The translations under genes and the position numbers were made by a program. Shown here piece by piece: positions 220 through 25,380 of a DNA stretch of 64,000 nt. Each line of letters starts with the position of its first letter. The stretch's first letter is position 1. Below the pieces are notes generated by a model, which saw only the letters and a program-made list of their open reading frames with translations, made no database searches and was not told the DNA's origin. This DNA comes from a virus (lineage: Duplodnaviria > Caudoviricetes), in the IMG/VR virus record IMGVR_UViG_3300022666_000111, one strand, 5' to 3'.

Positions 220-444
220 TCAGATCCTACGCTGATGCTTTGGCTTGGCTCCAGGCCCTCGTTGACGCTTAGTCTCCCGCAGGAACGATACGTCCTCCGC
301 CACAAATGCCGTGAAGGGAAGCATGGCGAGCAAAGCCAGTGAGCCCACCTTCGTGTTCAGCAAGGCAAAGCACAAGACCGTCGTGATTGCCATTCCAACG
401 AAAGCGATGAGGGTAGCGTATCGGCAGAAGTTTGAAACTCTCAT
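220..444 (-). CDS. small membrane protein
   Basis: Two hydrophobic stretches; ATG at 444 downstream of a TTGATC-N13-GGCATA promoter. Confidence 0.6.
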   Translation of the reverse strand: MRVSNFCRYATLIAFVGMAITTVLCFALLNTKVGSLALLAMLPFTAFVAEDVSFLRETKRQRGPGAKPKHQRRI

Positions 445-476
445 GGTGTCCTTAGTATGCCGTTGTAGGTAACGGA

Positions 477-1085
477 TCAACGAGAAAGCTGTGTCCAAAT
501 CCAATCGACCCAAGTAGTTCGGCCTTTGGCGGTGGGGTGGAGGAGGTCAGAGCCCATCTCGGCATTGGATTCACGTCCGTCGAGGTAGGGGGTCTTGGAG
601 TCATTGATCATGGCTTTGAAGGCGTCCAGGCCGGGCACAGCGCGGGCGAGGCAGTCTTTCATGGCGTGACACACGGTGGGGTCGGTTGAGCCGATCTTGG
701 GCGGACCAAGCCAGACGATGCGGGTTGCTCCGGTACGGTTGAGGCGGTTCAAAAGCGTTGTGAGGTACGGGGGCTCATTGGTGATGATGCGCGTCCCCAT
801 ACAGGCGTCGTTGGCGCCAAGGGCTACGAGGATGATCGTCGGCTTGAAGGCGCGGGCACGCCAATGCTCCCGGTGGAGGCTGGTCGCCCATTGGATGACG
901 GTGCTCCCCGCCTTGGGATCGCCGCCAAAGGGGACGCCTTCAGCCTTTGCCTTGGCGGCCAGGTATGGGTAAATGAGGTAGCCGTTACTGTCACCGATGA
1001 GCCAAACGCGATCGGTGGCCTTAATCTCGGCCTTAGCCGTCGTGGCTGTGAGCAGTAGGGCTAGAATCAGGGGAAGATGCTTCAT
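477..1085 (-). CDS. secreted SGNH/GDSL hydrolase
   Basis: Signal peptide MKHLPLILALLL; blocks IGDS, LGANDA, DLLHP; GGTGTAG upstream of the start at 1085. Confidence 0.8.
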   Translation of the reverse strand: MKHLPLILALLLTATTAKAEIKATDRVWLIGDSNGYLIYPYLAAKAKAEGVPFGGDPKAGSTVIQWATSLHREHWRARAFKPTIILVALGANDACMGTRIITNEPPYLTTLLNRLNRTGATRIVWLGPPKIGSTDPTVCHAMKDCLARAVPGLDAFKAMINDSKTPYLDGRESNAEMGSDLLHPTAKGRTTWVDWIWTQLSR

Positions 1086-1109
1086 GGGTGATTTTCTACA
1101 CCAAAGAGG

Positions 1110-1134
1110 TTGATCTCTCGTAGGGTTAGGCATA
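1110..1134 (+). promoter_or_regulatory. phage promoter TTGATC-N13-GGCATA
   Basis: One of about 18 bipartite copies. Confidence 0.75.
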
Positions 1135-1142
1135 AGAGGGAC

Positions 1143-1481
1143 ATGGCAACCTTCAGGAAAGATAACCGAACAGGCGAGTGGAAAGTTTTTGGAACGGCTG
1201 ACGAGGTGGCCCCCGGGTCCGTCAGTGTTCGCAAATCGGATGGTACGTCGAAGACGGTTCAAGTGGATCGCGTGTCCAAGCCCTTCGACGTCAATGGGGT
1301 CCTGCACGTCTACGGCTACATTGCCGCCAGCACAGCGGCGTCAACGAGCACGGGGAGCTGCTGCGCGGAGTGCGGCGCACCAAGCTCACGGATGACCATG
1401 TGTTCGGATTCGAATGGCATCCAGGGACCCTGCTGCCCACGATGCGCAAGGATGTCACGCTTCGAACGCTCCTTCGCATAA
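1143..1481 (+). CDS. hypothetical protein with C-terminal Zn-ribbon
   Basis: CxxC...CxxC; promoter at 1110-1134 just before the ATG. Confidence 0.65.
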   Translation: MATFRKDNRTGEWKVFGTADEVAPGSVSVRKSDGTSKTVQVDRVSKPFDVNGVLHVYGYIAASTAASTSTGSCCAECGAPSSRMTMCSDSNGIQGPCCPRCARMSRFERSFA

Positions 1482-1507
1482 TCCTCCTGTGACCGGGCGA
1501 TGATGTT

Positions 1508-2134
1508 ATGCGCGACCTCATCGCCCGTGTTGCTGCCCGCTATGAATGTCAGGACCTCCTTCGGCAAATCCAAGGGGGTAAGCCTGCGATCCTCGTCCTG
1601 GTCACATCCTACCCTGGGATGGACATCCGCGTTTATCCCACAGAGGACCTCCCGCCCGAAAGGGTCGCGGCGCTTGACACCTACCTCCAGGGGATCTTCA
1701 CGGCCAAGAAGATCGAAGACTACGGCCCATGTAAGGACCCCGGGGGCGCCCCGCTCTCCTACATGGTTCAGTCAGCTTGGGAGCACATCAAAGACGCCCT
1801 CTTGGGAGTCTCTTGGGAGGGGGCACCTTTCAAGCTCCTGCTCAACCCACAGCCTTCGCTCTATCCGGATGCCGAAAGGCATCACTTGGTCATCGACTCC
1901 TACGGGGAAACCTTCGAGGCTATCTTGAGGGTTCTCAAAGCCATCAAGGCGCTAGGCGACGCGGGACATTCAACCTCTGTCGACATTGATGGGAAGGCCG
2001 TTGCTGGTGTTGACGGTGACGGCGCCGACCGCATTGAGGAGATTCTCGTGGACGGTAAATCTCTAGACAGGATCGCTTCCTGTGTGGTGGCCAAGTACAA
2101 GGCCAAGAAGAAGGTCAAGACCAAAACATCTTGA
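1508..2134 (+). CDS. hypothetical protein; probable former N-terminal domain of the TopoIB polyprotein
   Basis: Starts LIARVAARY; ends VVAKYKAKKKVKTK, which duplicates the TopoIB N-terminus. Confidence 0.65.
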   Translation: MRDLIARVAARYECQDLLRQIQGGKPAILVLVTSYPGMDIRVYPTEDLPPERVAALDTYLQGIFTAKKIEDYGPCKDPGGAPLSYMVQSAWEHIKDALLGVSWEGAPFKLLLNPQPSLYPDAERHHLVIDSYGETFEAILRVLKAIKALGDAGHSTSVDIDGKAVAGVDGDGADRIEEILVDGKSLDRIASCVVAKYKAKKKVKTKTS

Positions 2135-2159
2135 CCGTGTGTAACGGTAGCGGTATGTT
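2131..2159 (+). promoter_or_regulatory. sigma70-like promoter of the HNH gene (leaderless)
   Basis: TTGACC-N17-TATGTT, 6 nt before ATG 2166. Confidence 0.55.
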
Positions 2160-2165
2160 GTCAGT

Positions 2166-3029
2166 ATGTCTTGCACTGCTGAAGGTTGCCAGGAAGTCGC
2201 GCGTATTAGGGGCTTGTGTCTGAGGCATTACCACTTGGCGCGACGGTCAGGTACCCTGGACGTCAAACGCCGGGGTCGGGCTTGCCAGGTAGCAGGATGC
2301 CCTGAACCGCACTATGCTAAGGGGTACTGCTCGGGCCACTATGACGCTTGGAAGCGGTGGGGGGATCCCTTAAAACGGGTTCGCGGACACAGAGGTGACG
2401 GTCATGTTGACCGTTTTGGCTACAGGTGGGTTTCCATTGATGGGAGGCTTGTTTTGGAGCACCGTGTCATTATGGAGGCCACCCTCGGTAGACCGCTTCA
2501 ACCAGGAGAAAGGGTCACACACCTGAATGGGGACAGATCTGATAACCGGATCGAAAACCTGAGCATCGCAACCAAAGGGTACATTTCCAAAAAGGGTCAC
2601 CGGGTACTCAGTGTTAAGGGTAAGCAAGTCCTTGAGCATCGCCTGGTTATGGAACGGCATCTTGGTAGAAGCCTTGGTGCAAATGAGCAGGTGCTGCACA
2701 GGAACGGAGATCCCCTAGATAACCGTTTGGAGAATCTCCTGATCCGCAACACCACTCCCGGAAGCTCGGATGGCTACATCTATGTGTATGTGGCAGGGCG
2801 GGGTAATGTGGCGGAGCACCGCTGGCTTATGGAGGGGATTCTAGGACGACCTTTGACATCCGATGAGAGCGTCCACCACCGTAATGGTGACCGTCAAGAT
2901 AACAGAGCCGAAAACTTGGAGTTGTGGTCAAGGTACCAGCCCTCCGGACAACGTGTGGCGGATAAGCTAAAGTGGGCGCGGGAGATAATCTCTCGTTATG
3001 GACACCTTGAGCATGCTGCGTCTAGCTGA
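2166..3029 (+). CDS. HNH homing endonuclease with three tandem HNH_3 repeats
   Basis: Repeated EHRxxME..LGR.L...E.VxHxNGDxxDNRxENL; two N-terminal Cys/His modules. Confidence 0.9.
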   Translation: MSCTAEGCQEVARIRGLCLRHYHLARRSGTLDVKRRGRACQVAGCPEPHYAKGYCSGHYDAWKRWGDPLKRVRGHRGDGHVDRFGYRWVSIDGRLVLEHRVIMEATLGRPLQPGERVTHLNGDRSDNRIENLSIATKGYISKKGHRVLSVKGKQVLEHRLVMERHLGRSLGANEQVLHRNGDPLDNRLENLLIRNTTPGSSDGYIYVYVAGRGNVAEHRWLMEGILGRPLTSDESVHHRNGDRQDNRAENLELWSRYQPSGQRVADKLKWAREIISRYGHLEHAASS

Positions 3030-3870
3030 ACGGGTTGTGGCCCGCTACCAGTCAAAACACCGCGTCAAAACGAAAGACGGGGACGAAATGGTGGTCTACG
3101 AGTATTCGGAGCGCCAGATCGCCAACCGAAACCGTAAGAAGGCGGAACGCCTCGAGAAGCTCAAGAAGAACATCGGCAACCTCCGCAAACGCGTCCAGCA
3201 GGACCTCAAGAGCAGTGACCCTGACACCATGCTATCCGCCCTGGCGGTAGCCCTCATCGACCACACGTATGAACGTGTAGGGAACGAGGAGTCTGCTGAT
3301 GATGGGCACTTCGGGGTCACCGGGTGGACCCGCAAGCACATTAGCTTCGGTCGTGGGAACGCGACGGTGAAGTACGTTGGCAAGTCCGGCGTGAAGCACA
3401 CCAAGAAGATCTCCGACGCCAGCATTCTCAAGGCCCTCAAGGATGTCTACGAGGCCCGGGAGGACGAGGACGAGAGCATCTTCACGCATGACTTGGGGAA
3501 GGTTGATGCCCGCAAGGTCAACGCCTACCTCAAGCAATTTGACGTGACAGCCAAGGACCTCCGAGGCTTCCACGCCAATCGAGAAATGCAAGAGCGCCTC
3601 AAGGAGATTCGCTCCAAGGGCAAGGCGCTATCCGAAGACAAGAAGGCCCGGGAGAAGCAGCTCAAGGCGGAATTCCTCAAAGCGCTTGAGGCAACGGCTG
3701 AGGCTGTCGGGCATGAGCCTGCGACCCTACGGTCGCAGTATTTGGTTCCGGGGCTCGAGGACGAGTACGTTAACAAGGGTACCGTAATGCCGTCCTTCAA
3801 AAAAGACGCTTCCAGTCTTGCAATACGCGTCATTCAACGCTATCTTGGGGCATGCTCAAGAAATGGGTGA
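3013..3870 (+). CDS. DNA topoisomerase IB (bacterial/poxvirus-type catalytic core)
   Basis: ERVGNE, FGVTG, YVGKSG, TAKDLRGFHAN, GHEPATLRSQY catalytic motifs. Confidence 0.9.
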   Translation: MLRLAERVVARYQSKHRVKTKDGDEMVVYEYSERQIANRNRKKAERLEKLKKNIGNLRKRVQQDLKSSDPDTMLSALAVALIDHTYERVGNEESADDGHFGVTGWTRKHISFGRGNATVKYVGKSGVKHTKKISDASILKALKDVYEAREDEDESIFTHDLGKVDARKVNAYLKQFDVTAKDLRGFHANREMQERLKEIRSKGKALSEDKKAREKQLKAEFLKALEATAEAVGHEPATLRSQYLVPGLEDEYVNKGTVMPSFKKDASSLAIRVIQRYLGACSRNG

Positions 3871-4709
3871 TCTATTCCCTTGAAGATCCGCGCGGTGGTG
3901 GTGTACGATACGTAGGCATCACACACCAAGAACCCCAAAAGAGACTTCGAGGGCACTTGTCCAAAGCCCGTCGAGGTGCCCGTTCCCACCTGTTCAACTG
4001 GATCAGGAAGCTTCAAGCAGATGGCGTTGAGCCTATCTTGCGTGTACTTGAATCGGGCTCTGGGGAAGGGTGGGGTGCTGCCGAAACTCAATGGATTGCG
4101 TGGCATCGTACACTAGGCTGCGACCTCACAAACGCCACAGATGGTGGGGAGGGATGCCCAGGTCACAAGGTATCCCTGGAGGCTCGTCAGAAGATGCGTG
4201 AGGCTCGACTGGGGAAACCCTTGAGCCCTGAGCACAAGGCGAAGGTGGCTGCGGGTAATCGCGGCAAGAAAATGCGTCCCGAGTCCATTGCGTTGGGTGT
4301 TGAAAAGAGGTGTGGGTTCAAACATACCGCCGAAGCACGAGCGAAGATATCTGCTGCCAGAAAAGGGAAGGCGGGGTGGATCCCCACCCCTGATGTGTTA
4401 GCTAAACGTGCGCGAGCAATACAAGCGGCTATGTCGAACAAACGCGCGGCTGGGGGAACGTTTAGCCCTGATGCAGCAACTCGCGCCAAGATCAGCCAGG
4501 CCAACAAGGGTCTGAAGCGGAGCCCTGAAACCCGCGCCAGGATGTCAGCGGCGCGTAAGGCGGTTTGTGCTAAAGAACGAGAACGGACGGGGAAGCAATT
4601 GGGAGAGAGAGCCTCCCACAAGACATGCCCTATATGTGGGCTTCACATGCACAGACAAAGCAAGACTTGCAGAAGTTGTTTTGAAAAGGCTAAGACACAC
4701 TGTTGTTAG
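3852..4709 (+). CDS. GIY-YIG homing endonuclease with NUMOD3 repeats
   Basis: VIYSLEDPR..VRYVGIT; LTNATDGGEG; repeated S.E.R.K[MI]S. Confidence 0.9.
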   Translation: MLKKWVIYSLEDPRGGGVRYVGITHQEPQKRLRGHLSKARRGARSHLFNWIRKLQADGVEPILRVLESGSGEGWGAAETQWIAWHRTLGCDLTNATDGGEGCPGHKVSLEARQKMREARLGKPLSPEHKAKVAAGNRGKKMRPESIALGVEKRCGFKHTAEARAKISAARKGKAGWIPTPDVLAKRARAIQAAMSNKRAAGGTFSPDAATRAKISQANKGLKRSPETRARMSAARKAVCAKERERTGKQLGERASHKTCPICGLHMHRQSKTCRSCFEKAKTHCC

Positions 4710-4714
4710 ATCGG

Positions 4715-5152
4715 GTCCCAGGGCTTGAGGAGGACTTCATGGCGGACGGTAAGGTGGACGGCAATTTCGTCAAGTCAGCATCCTTGGAGCAGCGCGTGGT
4801 ACAGCGCTACCTAGCGGATCGACGGGCAGCGGCCAAGTTTGCCGTCGTCGATACCTACGCGGCGCTTGTCAAGAAGTGTCATGATGCGGAGTACACTGGG
4901 GTCCAAAAGATCCTGGCCCGGGTCAATCTGATCGCGAAGACCATTGGCTACACTCTTGACATGCAGCAATCCTACCTCGAGGCGCGGACCGGGAGCGAGA
5001 CGACCATTGAAGGTCGGTTGCGCTTCAAGGAGATCCCCGGGGCGAGGAATATCGTCCTGGGAGAATCCGCTATTCACACGGCTATGCGTGACCTCTTTGA
5101 CCTGTGGTCCTACCCACGTATGAACCAGGATGGGTTCGACATTAGTGTCTAA
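4715..5152 (+). CDS. displaced native C-terminus of TopoIB plus extra domain (may restart at ATG 4739)
   Basis: VPGLEEDF...SLEQRVVQRYL duplicates the TopoIB end; GAGGAGG before ATG 4739. Confidence 0.6.
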   Translation, partial: VPGLEEDFMADGKVDGNFVKSASLEQRVVQRYLADRRAAAKFAVVDTYAALVKKCHDAEYTGVQKILARVNLIAKTIGYTLDMQQSYLEARTGSETTIEGRLRFKEIPGARNIVLGESAIHTAMRDLFDLWSYPRMNQDGFDISV

Positions 5153-5203
5153 AGCGCCGCTCATACATTGATCGACACCCTCCAGGGGTGTAGTATGGGC
5201 ATC

Positions 5204-6052
5204 ATGCAGATTGCAGAACTACACTTAGCACCAAGCAACGTTGAGGAGACGCTTCACCGTATCCTTGACGACCTGGACCTTCCTCGCGTAGAGGCGCGGA
5301 CGGGGCTTCGGCTTTCCGAGCTGGTCCCACGCCTTCGTGAGTACCGCCACAATCAAGATCAATTCCACCAGGGCGAAACGATCCTTGAGCACATCCAGAT
5401 GGTTCTCGAGGATCTCGAGCGCATCACGGTTGGGTTGGGCTACCCAGACAGGCAGCTCCTCAACGCCACGGCGCTCTTCCACGACCTGGGGAAGGCTTAC
5501 ACGCGGACCGTTGAGGACGGCCGGTTCAAGTATCACCGGCACGCTGAGGTCAGCGGGCTCGTCTACGACGCTCTCATGGCTCAAGAAACTAGCCAGGAGT
5601 TCTTCCTGATCCGAGACCTTGTCCGGCTACACGACGTCTTCTTGGATCTTGCGCGGGCGCGACGGGAGGCCACTGGGGGATCGCTGCGTTACCTCAACCG
5701 GCTCATGACGGAGCCTCTCGTTCAGCAAGGGCGGCTCTACTTGCTCCTACACTTCGTTCAAGCGGATACCGCGAGGGCGCAGCAGGATAACGCCTCCGCC
5801 CGGAGCCTCCAGCGTGTCTTGAGCGACATCGAATCCTACCAGATTCGTCAAGCTGAAGAGGTCGAGCTACGACGCCGGATGCAAGAACGGGCTGTGACAC
5901 ATGCCGATGCCATCCGTGACCTTGTCCAAGAGGTCCCAGAAGCCGCAGCGGTCCTCCCTAACATCTCCGCTATGAACGAGATTCTGGGCCGCGTTCGTCG
6001 CTACGACCTCATTCGGGCTACGCAAGCTATCCTGCAAGGGAGCCCCACATGA
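5204..6052 (+). CDS. HD-domain phosphohydrolase
   Basis: ILEH...LFHDLGK...HAEVS...HD...AD; promoter at 5168-5193. Confidence 0.8.
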   Translation: MQIAELHLAPSNVEETLHRILDDLDLPRVEARTGLRLSELVPRLREYRHNQDQFHQGETILEHIQMVLEDLERITVGLGYPDRQLLNATALFHDLGKAYTRTVEDGRFKYHRHAEVSGLVYDALMAQETSQEFFLIRDLVRLHDVFLDLARARREATGGSLRYLNRLMTEPLVQQGRLYLLLHFVQADTARAQQDNASARSLQRVLSDIESYQIRQAEEVELRRRMQERAVTHADAIRDLVQEVPEAAAVLPNISAMNEILGRVRRYDLIRATQAILQGSPT

Positions 6053-6863: not shown

Positions 6864-7274
6864 TTAGCTCTCGTCGTCGTCCTCTCGAAGTCGGTCCAAC
6901 CATGATTGACCCTCTGGTGCTGGTGTGGCTTCCTTGCGCTTACGGCCCCGACGTGCGGGCGCCGGAGGGGCCGCTGGGGCTTGGGGCTCTGGTGTTGCTA
7001 CGGTCGGGGGTGCTGGCGTTTGCGGGCGTTGCTGGTGCTCAGCTAGACGCCTGACTCTGCCTTGAAGATCCTCAATGGCTTCAGCTTGCGCACGAAGACG
7101 GGTGCGTACCATATCCAGGACGTCTTCAGACAGGTTGGAAGTCTCGTGCCGGATCATCCATGTCATGTAGTAACGCCAGGCCCGCCAGATCAAAATGAGC
7201 GCAAGCGAGAGAAGCATGGCGGCGACCCGCCAGTCACGGATGATGTAGGTCGAGACTTTCTCAAACCACGTCAT
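6864..7274 (-). CDS. membrane-anchored coiled-coil protein with acidic C-terminal tag
   Basis: One TM helix, Pro-rich linker, ends SWLDRLREDDDES. Confidence 0.6.
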   Translation of the reverse strand: MTWFEKVSTYIIRDWRVAAMLLSLALILIWRAWRYYMTWMIRHETSNLSEDVLDMVRTRLRAQAEAIEDLQGRVRRLAEHQQRPQTPAPPTVATPEPQAPAAPPAPARRGRKRKEATPAPEGQSWLDRLREDDDES

Positions 7275-7971
7275 TGGGGTCTATGTCCCAGGCTGGACGT
7301 GCGGGTTGCTGTTCAAAAGCCTTGATGGGGGCGTAGCTACGGCGGTGGATCGGGCAGGGGCCGAGCTTGCGCAGCGCCTCCTCGTGGACTTTGGTGCCGT
7401 ATCCCTTGTGCTTCTCGAATCCGTAGCCGGGGTAGTCTTGAGCAAAGCGGGCCATCTCCCGATCACGGTAGACCTTGGCGATGACGCTTGCCAAGGTGAT
7501 GGCAGGGACGATCTGGTCACCTTTGGGGAGGCAGAAGACTTGGGGGTTGTGCTCTGGATCCAGGTTGGGGTTGATGCTCCCATCCACGATCACGATGGGG
7601 TTCACCGGGAGGCGGTGGAACGTCCCCTGGATCGCAAGGCGATGAGCCAAGCGTAGGGCCGCTGAAGCCCCGAGGCGGTCAATCTCCTCGGGGGGCATGA
7701 CGTAGGGGCTGATGACGATGCTATCGTTTGGCTTGAGCCAATAGCGGTCAAAGATACGCTCCCGTTCGGTCTCGGTGAGCATCTTGGAGTCACGCCAAGG
7801 GTTGCCTGGGCCACGGTTTCGGAATTCAGGATCGGTGGGTTCCCAATCACAAGAGACGGCGACCGCGCAGGTGAGGAGGGGGCCAGCCCAGGCCCCGTAG
7901 CCAGCCTCGTCGCTTCCGACAATCGGGGTGGCCCTTGCAGTATCGATGGTGGGGATGCCTGTCTTGAGCAT
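7261..7971 (-). CDS. rnhB: ribonuclease HII
   Basis: GSDEAGYG, DSK, IVDG, PKGD, ASVIAKVYRD, YPGYGFEKHKGYGT. Confidence 0.93.
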   Translation of the reverse strand: MLKTGIPTIDTARATPIVGSDEAGYGAWAGPLLTCAVAVSCDWEPTDPEFRNRGPGNPWRDSKMLTETERERIFDRYWLKPNDSIVISPYVMPPEEIDRLGASAALRLAHRLAIQGTFHRLPVNPIVIVDGSINPNLDPEHNPQVFCLPKGDQIVPAITLASVIAKVYRDREMARFAQDYPGYGFEKHKGYGTKVHEEALRKLGPCPIHRRSYAPIKAFEQQPARPAWDIDPNDVV

Positions 7972-7979
7972 GATGCCAT

Positions 7980-8369
7980 CTACACCAGATTAGCCGTGTC
8001 GCACAACCCTCGAAGCTGGATTTCAGCGGTATGTAGCGCAGCTTTGTAGACCTGCATCTGCCAGGAGTTGAGCCGCACGCCACGGACCGGAACGAAGAGG
8101 GCCTTCTTGAGCTTGACGCCATCCATCAGACGCCCACCGGGGTAAGTCACCTTGCAGAGTTCGAGGGGATCAACAACAAGCTGACCAAGCACGACGTGGG
8201 CGGCGGAGTCAGCCCCCATGCGACCGTCGTCACAATAGTGTCCAGGGCATGTTGCGACGTCAGCCAGGATGGCCTTGGCGGACCAGAGGACCGTGAGGTG
8301 GTGCATGACAGCACCGGGGAGGTTGTTGAGCGTTTTACCAATGACACTGGAAGTCGTGTGTTGAACCAT
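7980..8369 (-). CDS. hypothetical protein
   Basis: GGTGTAG 9 nt before start; its own Val-stop forms the rnhB promoter core. Confidence 0.6.
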   Translation of the reverse strand: MVQHTTSSVIGKTLNNLPGAVMHHLTVLWSAKAILADVATCPGHYCDDGRMGADSAAHVVLGQLVVDPLELCKVTYPGGRLMDGVKLKKALFVPVRGVRLNSWQMQVYKAALHTAEIQLRGLCDTANLV

Positions 8370-24283: not shown

Positions 24284-24814
24284 ATGTCATTGGTGATGAC
24301 GACCTCTGGCATCGTGACCAAGCCAAACCCTCAAGACCTGTGGGAGCCGACCAACGTTGGCCTATGGGAGAGGGTCAACGACTTGGCTCAAGGCAGGATC
24401 AAGGAACTCAAAGGCAAGGACACCACGTATCACGCCCCAAGGGATGGCGCGGGGTTCAAGGAGTTTCCCTCACCACGTGCCAATGGGTGGTGCGTGAGGA
24501 TCTACAACCTTGCCGGGGGACGTTGGCGCAAAAAGGGTGAGACGCGAACCTTCCTTCTCACGGGGAACATGGTTGAGAAGGTCGTTGAGCGGCACCAAAC
24601 CAAGCTGGCGAAGATGCTCGGAGAGGACATTCGTCGCAGCATGGCCCGCTATCAAGAAGGGCCGAGCCGCGAATGGCACCAGTGTAACGGATGCTCCTTA
24701 TGGGTTGCCACCGAACCTCGCATTGTCACGGCGGCGCAGCCTGGCATCTGCCTTCGCTACCAATTCAGAACAATCGATAAGGGGTGGTGCCCCACACATC
24801 ACACGATGGAGTAA
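24284..24814 (+). CDS. hypothetical phage protein
   Basis: PTN..LW...FPS..ANGW...Y...GG.W; C-terminal Cys cluster. Confidence 0.55.
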   Translation: MSLVMTTSGIVTKPNPQDLWEPTNVGLWERVNDLAQGRIKELKGKDTTYHAPRDGAGFKEFPSPRANGWCVRIYNLAGGRWRKKGETRTFLLTGNMVEKVVERHQTKLAKMLGEDIRRSMARYQEGPSREWHQCNGCSLWVATEPRIVTAAQPGICLRYQFRTIDKGWCPTHHTME

Positions 24815-24819
24815 CAACC

Positions 24820-25380
24820 ATGGCTATGATCGGCCTGCGTATGCCTGCCGAGACAGGTAGGCTGCTTTCAGAGATTTCCGTCGAAGGGGAGGCGGTTGAT
24901 TTCGGCCACGCCCACGTGACGGTCGTCTACCTTGGTGATGACGTCCCTCTCCCGGCTGTCTTGAAGGCCGTGGAGGTCTGCTATGACGTGGCGCAACGAA
25001 TGCGTCCGATCAAGTGCAGCACGCGTCACACGTTCTGCTTCCCTCCATCGGATGAGGGAAAGCATCCAATCATCTGCCCGATTGATTCCCCAGACCTACA
25101 TGTCCTCCATGCAGGGATCACCGCAGGGCTTGACGCTGCGGGCGTCGAGTACAGCAAGAAGTGGCCGGAGTATAGGCCGCACACGACGTTGGCCTATGCC
25201 GACGCGCCTTACCCCGTGATCGACTTCGATCCGATCGAATGGACGGCTTTCGAGCTGACCGTATGGGGTGGGGATCATCGGGATTCGCGGATAGTCATCG
25301 CGATCCCGTTCTACTTCAAAAGTGACGCCAAGTTGGCCGCCAGGGTAGCCGCCCGGTGGCTTGGGCAAAACGCAGGCTAA
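24820..25380 (+). CDS. 2H phosphoesterase (2'-5' RNA ligase / Acb1-like fold)
   Basis: Two HxT motifs, AHVTVVYLG and PHTTLAY; C-terminal AARVAARWL. Confidence 0.82.
   Translation: MAMIGLRMPAETGRLLSEISVEGEAVDFGHAHVTVVYLGDDVPLPAVLKAVEVCYDVAQRMRPIKCSTRHTFCFPPSDEGKHPIICPIDSPDLHVLHAGITAGLDAAGVEYSKKWPEYRPHTTLAYADAPYPVIDFDPIEWTAFELTVWGGDHRDSRIVIAIPFYFKSDAKLAARVAARWLGQNAG

Follow-up and report, generated by a model that had tools for sequence, protein, structure and literature searches.

Free-standing HNH and GIY-YIG endonuclease genes split phage genes, and both this splitting and homing with one-sided homology are established for T4-type phages (PMC2988022). The reviewed cases include mobE in nrdA of Aeromonas phage Aeh1, mobA in the T4 topoisomerase gene 39/60, and a seg-like insertion in gene 43 (PMC2988022). 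A related arrangement occurs in yeasts of the genera Torulaspora and Lachancea, in which WHO elements at FBA1 consist of a nuclease gene and a resistant replacement end of the target gene, with the old end pushed out past the nuclease gene (Coughlan et al. 2020, PMC7282813). Here, we describe a locus at positions 1508-5152 of a 64,000-nucleotide stretch of DNA (hereafter, the window) from a huge uncultured phage (Duplodnaviria; Caudoviricetes; IMG/VR record IMGVR_UViG_3300022666_000111), in which five closely packed plus-strand genes encode a protein that we call A, an HNH endonuclease, a type IB topoisomerase (TopoIB), a GIY-YIG endonuclease, and a protein that we call E, with an HD-domain gene next. 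We consider it likely that two free-standing homing endonuclease cassettes, each with a substitute gene end, have split the gene of a multi-module ("polyvalent"-type) protein at this locus.

Results

An endonuclease-free relative of the locus

The comparison that carries the argument is with L020, a 5-kb contig that is a syntenic relative of the window, has neither endonuclease nor E, and encodes A and TopoIB in one 463-amino-acid protein (P0153). The genes of the window are as follows.

1508-2134, plus strand: gene A, 208 amino acids, with an N-terminal RVAARY helix and, near the C-terminus, a TopoIB-head stub followed by two foreign codons and a stop codon
2166-3029, plus strand: free-standing HNH endonuclease gene, 287 amino acids, PF13392 (HNH_3) in three stretches (E = 8.9e-32); not in L020
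2998-3870, plus strand: TopoIB gene, complete, 290 amino acids, PF01028; the core (3064-3768) is orthologous to L020, the head (2998-3063) and the tail (3769-3870) are not
3852-4709, plus strand: free-standing GIY-YIG endonuclease gene, 285 amino acids, PF01541 (E = 2.8e-7) and PF07460 (NUMOD3; E = 1e-13), with a C-terminal zinc-ribbon-like motif; not in L020
4703-5152, plus strand: open reading frame of E, with a likelier gene start at ATG 4739 (4739-5152, 137 amino acids)
5195-6052, plus strand: HD-domain gene (PF01966), which follows E

Collinearity of L020 and the window starts upstream of A and extends past the RNase HII gene, and the two align by blastn (HD gene given last) in the following segments.

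L020 5-686 with window 1458-2124: 75% nucleotide identity
L020 676-1380 with window 3064-3768: 78% nucleotide identity, ungapped
L020 1357-1421 with window 4715-4779: 81.5% nucleotide identity
HD gene, the following gene in both: 66% nucleotide identity, and 58% amino acid identity to L020 1470-2309

The blastn alignments break between 2124 and 3064 and again between 3768 and 4715 of the window. Thus, the window carries two inserts of about 940 nucleotides each (2125-3063 and 3769-4714), and the two endonuclease genes, both missing at the otherwise collinear L020 site, are a presence/absence polymorphism. The segments at the borders are as follows.

2090-2125, plus strand: TopoIB-head stub on A, read as the resident copy; 12 codons (AKY...KVKTK) at the C-terminus of A, 32/36 nucleotides as in L020
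2125-3063, plus strand: insert 1, not in L020; two codons and a stop codon, a 31-nucleotide spacer, the HNH gene and the replacement TopoIB N-terminus
2998-3075, plus strand: replacement head; start codon, RVVARY helix and basic stub, overlapping the last 32 nucleotides of the HNH gene
3745-3870, plus strand: replacement tail; starts two codons past the catalytic tyrosine codon, has an RVIQRY motif, and its last 7 codons lie inside the GIY-YIG gene
3769-4714, plus strand: insert 2, not in L020; the remainder of the replacement tail and the GIY-YIG gene
4715-4780, plus strand: TopoIB-tail stub, read as the resident copy; 22 codons that at present form the 5' leader and the N-terminus of E

Outside the inserts the correspondence with L020 extends to the proteins. 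The TopoIB core is 83% identical to P0153 in amino acids and 78% identical to L020 in nucleotides, ungapped; A is 76% identical to residues 1-211 of P0153, and the tail of P0153 matches the head of E at 18 of 22 amino acids (82%). Moreover, A is joined directly to TopoIB through a single junction in P0153, P0154, P0155 and locus L025, and its identity to internal modules of the TopoIB-bearing proteins P0154, P0155, P0008 and P0156 is 57-65%. TopoIB is present in 5/5 longer homologues of A. The inserts, their borders, the identity of the resident copies and the fused relatives are thus matters of observation. A first-pass annotation of the window had proposed that two flanking endonucleases cut TopoIB from its neighbors, and the fused A-TopoIB relatives together with endonuclease-free L020 bear this out; the separation of TopoIB from its neighbors by two endonuclease gene insertions is strongly supported.

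Duplicated gene ends

The same annotation had noted that the end of A resembles the head of TopoIB and that the end of TopoIB resembles the head of E, and both pairs indeed scored above 1000 of 1000 shuffles. The last 26 amino acids of A aligned with the first 26 of TopoIB with a local BLOSUM62 score of 61 (shuffle mean 32, maximum 56; 0/1000 shuffles reached the score), and the C-terminal 34 amino acids of TopoIB before its run-on into the GIY-YIG gene aligned with residues 5-37 of the E frame with a score of 75 (shuffle maximum 61; 0/1000). The similarity between A and E was at the chance level in local alignment against shuffles. Since RVxxRY motifs are common at protein termini in this phage group, one might suppose that no split occurred and that the genes for A, TopoIB and E are independent, with nothing in common but such terminal motifs. 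However, the similarity extends well past the motif, into the TopoIB-specific KxKKKVKTK basic stub and the VPGLEE... tail, and the fused orthologue P0153 of L020 already refutes this idea, to which we give next to no credence.

At the DNA level, the paired copies are identical at only 22 of 36 nucleotides for the head (61%) and 33 of 66 for the tail (50%), which argues that they are old or foreign copies rather than fresh duplicates. Measured against L020, the members of each pair differ. For the head, the stub on A (2090-2125) matches L020 at 32/36 nucleotides (89%) and the TopoIB copy (3040-3075) at 22/36 (61%; Fisher p = 0.013); for the tail, the stub on E (4715-4780) matches at 53/66 (80%) and the TopoIB copy (3745-3810) at 35/66 (53%; p = 0.0015). 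Judged by these sequences, it is the stubs on A and E that are resident. The closest short matches of the replacement head are P0079 and P0105, not P0153, and those of the replacement tail are the tails of P0002 and P0001; the best matches of head and tail thus differ from those of the core, with the proviso that, for trees, the segments are too short and the close alleles too few. The replacement head is also similar to the N-termini that proteins with a leading TopoIB module naturally have (M-D-x-L...RVAARYK), and of 24 homologues in which TopoIB comes last, 11 have a motif-bearing C-terminus like the replacement tail. With a resident core and two non-resident ends, each beside a nuclease gene, TopoIB is therefore a chimera.

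The first-pass annotation had taken these ends to be recoded in place. On that account, each insertion would have duplicated 40-100 nucleotides of resident sequence in tandem, and the nuclease-side copy would then have been quickly recoded, for instance to escape self-cleavage. The paired copies do have the same length and register (with one gap) and the same motifs, and self-immunity is a plausible driver of such change. However, divergence from L020 is normal in the stubs (80-89% nucleotide identity) and in the core (78%), while the TopoIB copies reach only 53-61%; in addition, the replacement head has the M-D-x-L N-terminus typical of independent TopoIB genes and the replacement tail is closest to other lineages. 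The ends beside the endonucleases thus look imported, which goes against this part of the annotation, and we consider in-place duplication improbable.

Proposed mechanism: end-replacing homing

The reading that best fits these results is end replacement of the kind described for WHO elements. In the ancestral state, A would have run directly into TopoIB, as in L020/P0153, and the TopoIB tail would probably have run on into E. Each nuclease would cut the intact allele at a highly conserved site, and repair would copy in the nuclease gene and, along with it, a replacement end that is diverged and presumably uncuttable, pushing the old gene end to the far side of the cassette. The HNH cassette, with its own TopoIB N-terminus, sits behind the KVKTK codons with which the TopoIB module opens, and the GIY-YIG cassette, with its own C-terminus and stop codon, sits two codons past the catalytic tyrosine codon. 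The displaced ends would be the C-terminal stub of A and the leader plus N-terminus of E, and the outcome would be three polypeptides (A, a complete stand-alone TopoIB, and E) and two nucleases. Since each cassette supplies a new end, the TopoIB enzyme module stays whole, and with TopoIB having been part of a longer protein, both of its displaced ends would have stayed in frame with A and E and are predicted to be still expressed. The cleavage, its specificity, the immunity, and the direction of events and of transfer are inferred.

Homing nucleases typically pick highly conserved sites. Among 150 homologues compared, both insertion sites lie in stretches that are among the most conserved of the module, namely the basic stub with which it begins and the codons right behind the catalytic tyrosine.

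Four points weigh against this reading. First, sliding-window identity to L020 gave no divergence gradient in the TopoIB core toward the inserts, so that no co-conversion tract is visible. Second, we found no donor genome with either cassette beside a stand-alone TopoIB gene; the IMG/VR relatives of the two nucleases are distant (30-56% identity), and none adjoins TopoIB. Third, no TopoIB-E fusion was found in a longer-protein search, in IMG/VR, or in two metagenome scans, negatives that are weak because word and pattern searches reach only close relatives; L020, too, has no E, and its gene ends after the tail. Fourth, the nuclease activity and the target sites of the HNH and GIY-YIG proteins are predicted.

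In the contexts of four homologues that end with TopoIB (P0017, P0018, P0013 and P0002), no nuclease gene adjoins TopoIB.

We also considered a composite element that moves the whole TopoIB gene. This was not supported: the core is about as diverged from L020 as A is (78% and 75% nucleotide identity), although the HD gene is more so (66%).

Since homing endonucleases of phages are often intron- or intein-encoded, splicing might in principle restore a single A-TopoIB-E product. However, both nuclease genes are separate open reading frames, in frames other than those of their neighbors, with their own stops and with overlapping starts. No Rfam family of group I or II introns was found in 1300-5400, even at E = 10, and neither nuclease had a match to an intein family of Pfam. 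We therefore rejected this explanation as extremely improbable.

GIY-YIG genes also occur in two other loci. In the 485-kb phage LR745208 (L001, 6028-8787), two genes that have 58% identity over their first ~53 residues flank a GIY-YIG gene (7229-8089), and this may be another nuclease cassette with a duplicated gene end. In L021, a minus-strand GIY-YIG/NUMOD3 gene (4334-5209) lies ~1.4 kb downstream of a TopoIB gene and not adjacent to it, near genes for a DNA methyltransferase and RNase HII.

Gene E and the ancestral protein

From ATG 4739, E consists of 14 amino acids of TopoIB tail, an RVVQRY helix and a body of ~110 amino acids. This ATG is more likely the start of E than is the start of the frame at 4703; the JGI gene call (P0151, 137 amino acids) begins there, and a ribosome binding site precedes it.

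4727-4733, plus strand: Shine-Dalgarno sequence GAGGAGG, made by the Leu-Glu-Glu-Asp codons of the displaced tail, 5 nucleotides before ATG 4739

Thus, the VPGLEEDF stretch with which the first-pass annotation had begun this open reading frame belongs to the first 12 codons of the E frame, all of which precede the likely start.

The only relative of E that we found is P0152 in locus L008 (53% identical), where the E homologue likewise follows a GIY-YIG gene, which is 49% identical to that of the window and in the same position, and precedes an HD gene. Six codons from 4715 on are identical in nucleotides in L008. Over the tail stub, 21 of 22 amino acids are identical with 6 synonymous changes, compared to 50 of 111 amino acids (45%) in the body; thus, the retained stub on E is under purifying selection. 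The head of E is clearly the resident TopoIB tail.

E was probably once fused to TopoIB. An A-TopoIB-E protein of ~570 amino acids was the ancestor proposed in the first-pass annotation, along with a search for fused TopoIB homologues in related phages. That search found the A-TopoIB half, for which fusions are common, and not the TopoIB-E half; a three-module ancestor is plausible rather than demonstrated, the layout of E as tail, motif and module being what makes it so. It is possible, though we doubt it, that the ancestor had two modules and that TopoIB-E was never one functional protein; an A-TopoIB gene would have ended after the tail, as in L020, and the E body, gained either later or along with the GIY-YIG cassette, would have become attached to the displaced tail. 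Consistent with this, L020, P0008, P0154 and P0155 all end a few residues past the tail with a similar ending, the E body is found in two lineages only, each time behind a GIY-YIG gene, and the searches for longer homologues of E came up empty. In contrast, the in-frame order of tail, RVxxRY helix and module in E is how TopoIB joins downstream modules elsewhere (P0001, P0031, P0032), and a two-module ancestor needs an extra rearrangement that replaces the last 7 codons and the stop codon of an L020-type gene.

The TopoIB module and its family

TopoIB (2998-3870) matches PF01028 with 100.7 bits (cut-off 23.7). In an alignment to variola TopIB (2H7F), the arginine of ERVG, the lysine of VGK, the arginine of KDLR, the histidine of VGH and the tyrosine of SQY (Tyr248) are in register, opposite residues that we take to be R130, K167, R223, H265 and Y274, so that 5/5 catalytic residues are kept. 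By this alignment, TopoIB is a complete type IB topoisomerase module with a predicted intact active site. It shares the catalytic domain, with Arg-Lys-Arg-His-Tyr in register, with the poxvirus and bacterial enzymes (variola 2H7F, Deinococcus 2F4Q), and its identity to variola TopIB is ~20-25%, as estimated from the alignment. Unlike these enzymes, the phage module has its own basic N-terminal stub and a short tail, and is mostly found inside larger proteins.

Among uncultured huge phages the module is very frequent, with 580 cluster representatives at E values under 1e-30. In the 150 homologues compared, it stands at any position of proteins of 272-3381 amino acids. Examples are a 508-amino-acid fusion with an unrelated N-terminal domain, whose gene adjoins the portal gene of a 485-kb phage, and polyproteins of 2000-3100 amino acids; TopoIB homologue genes adjoin the portal gene in L001 and L004, and an HD domain is fused directly downstream of TopoIB in P0007 (579 amino acids) and P0156 (908 amino acids).

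Many TopoIB modules (P0036, P0041, P0054, P0063 and others) are followed by a second recurrent linker, an acidic ATKS/T-x-AE-K/R-EDEE followed by P-x-PK-x-KPPR-x-DLR, which is another boundary element.

The RVxxRY boundary motif

The first-pass annotation had taken the RVxxRY motif on each piece to imply selection on it as a tag. We found the pattern R-[VIL]-A-x-[RK]-[YFWH] 219 times in 154 TopoIB-bearing proteins, compared to 13.9 times in shuffles (16-fold), with 43 of the occurrences near N-termini and 23 near C-termini, and the motif marks the starts of A, TopoIB, HD and other modules. RVxxRY is thus a family-wide module-boundary motif, neither created nor specially preserved by the split, and its presence on each piece is no proof of selection caused by the split; what stands of that claim is the real purifying selection on the stub of E. 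This analysis brings to attention an abundant and undescribed boundary motif.

We can only speculate, and with clear reservations, that the RVxxRY helix works as an address or as a processing tag, through which every module of these polyproteins would be autonomous, with virion packaging and proteolytic release as possible purposes, and that the TopoIB start and the codons past the catalytic tyrosine are recurrent landing sites of an undescribed guild of end-replacing homing cassettes in huge phages. If true, the tag role would account for the tolerance of endonuclease-driven fission, for the motif on both replacement ends, and for tail plus motif being the most strongly conserved part of E.

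Elsewhere in the window, a plus-strand open reading frame (24784-25380) and a minus-strand one ending near 37930 (motif at 37988) have RVAARW and RVVARY, respectively, a few residues before the stop codon. In relatives, a motif-bearing 2H-phosphoesterase-like protein is encoded by a separate gene (L004, 4265-4903) or lies inside a polyprotein (L003). The L003 polyprotein (221-4327), upstream of the TopoIB-bearing one, has by eye a 2H-phosphoesterase module and an intein-like insertion (Cys start, HN end) in a region resembling CCA-adding enzymes and poly(A) polymerases.

Other features of the locus

A hairpin lies at the border of the first insert.

2113-2136, plus strand: hairpin with a perfect 8-bp stem and an 8-nucleotide loop (-11.4 kcal/mol), exactly on the junction of the A stub and insert 1, overlapping the stop codon of A

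Its right arm contains the -35-like TTGACC of a promoter-like site (2131-2159). About 0.5 such stems would be expected by chance per 5 kb, by our estimate; the position alone is noteworthy, and suggestive.

A and E match no Pfam family, word searches that reach only close relatives gave no match for them among GenBank phages, and the ESM Atlas gave no usable lead for either (for E, no match). Their predicted structures are of low confidence (mean pLDDT 57.8 for A and 54.2 for E). The HNH protein, with three tandem HNH_3 units and two N-terminal Cys-rich repeats, is built in a way that is unusual among homing endonucleases. Elsewhere in the window (61777-62310, plus strand), a second GIY-YIG/NUMOD3-like gene fragment is 35% identical to residues 82-190 of the GIY-YIG protein encoded at 3852-4709.

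Discussion

The window and L020 form a clean natural before/after pair, in which selfish nuclease genes appear to have broken up a multi-module phage protein without harming the enzyme that they target, because each cassette brings a spare gene end. Such events would provide one concrete route to the highly variable fusion and fission patterns of the polyvalent proteins of huge phages. As passages of Iyer et al. (2017, PMC5512222) describe them, polyvalent proteins have many unrelated, freely shuffled modules per polypeptide and an architecture that varies between relatives, and the proteins described here share these features. In those passages, in which topoisomerase occurs once, TopoIB is not presented as a polyvalent-protein module. 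For the proteins of this phage, packaging or injection would be a candidate role.

The locus shares with the split genes of Aeh1 and T4-type phages a free-standing HNH or GIY-YIG gene that lies inside what is a single open reading frame in related phages, so that separate polypeptides result. It differs in that the halves of those proteins must reassemble into one enzyme, whereas here the enzyme module is whole and independent neighboring modules have been separated; moreover, duplicated ends are not described in PMC2988022. One-sided homology would be expected here, because a cassette from a stand-alone TopoIB gene would enter a fused gene; the precedent for one-sided homing is an experimental intron system, and no microhomology junction is identifiable at the window locus.

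The closest likeness is to WHO elements, with which the locus shares a nuclease gene that travels with a diverged end of its target, a target that is a chimera of resident body and imported end, and an old end that persists as a fragment. Specifically, the TopoIB ends beside the nucleases (61% nucleotide identity to L020 for the head and 53% for the tail) are far more diverged than the core (78%), and the old ends are retained beyond the nuclease genes (2090-2125, 89%; 4715-4780, 80%). In contrast, the nucleases are HNH and GIY-YIG proteins and not of the WHO/HO/VDE family, WHO itself being an intein-like LAGLIDADG protein with a zinc finger. Moreover, the host is a phage and not a yeast chromosome, both ends of one gene have been replaced by two elements in mirror orientation, and the displaced ends, being fused to neighboring modules, are predicted to remain translated. 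Thus, by this comparison, the locus appears to work like a WHO element and is no member of the WHO family. End-replacement homing, for which the experimental description comes from yeast, would thereby be extended to phages and to two further families of nucleases, and it would act from both sides of one gene. Endonuclease-split phage genes and WHO-like end replacement were both known already; what is new here is a variant of these in which the target is one module within a longer protein.

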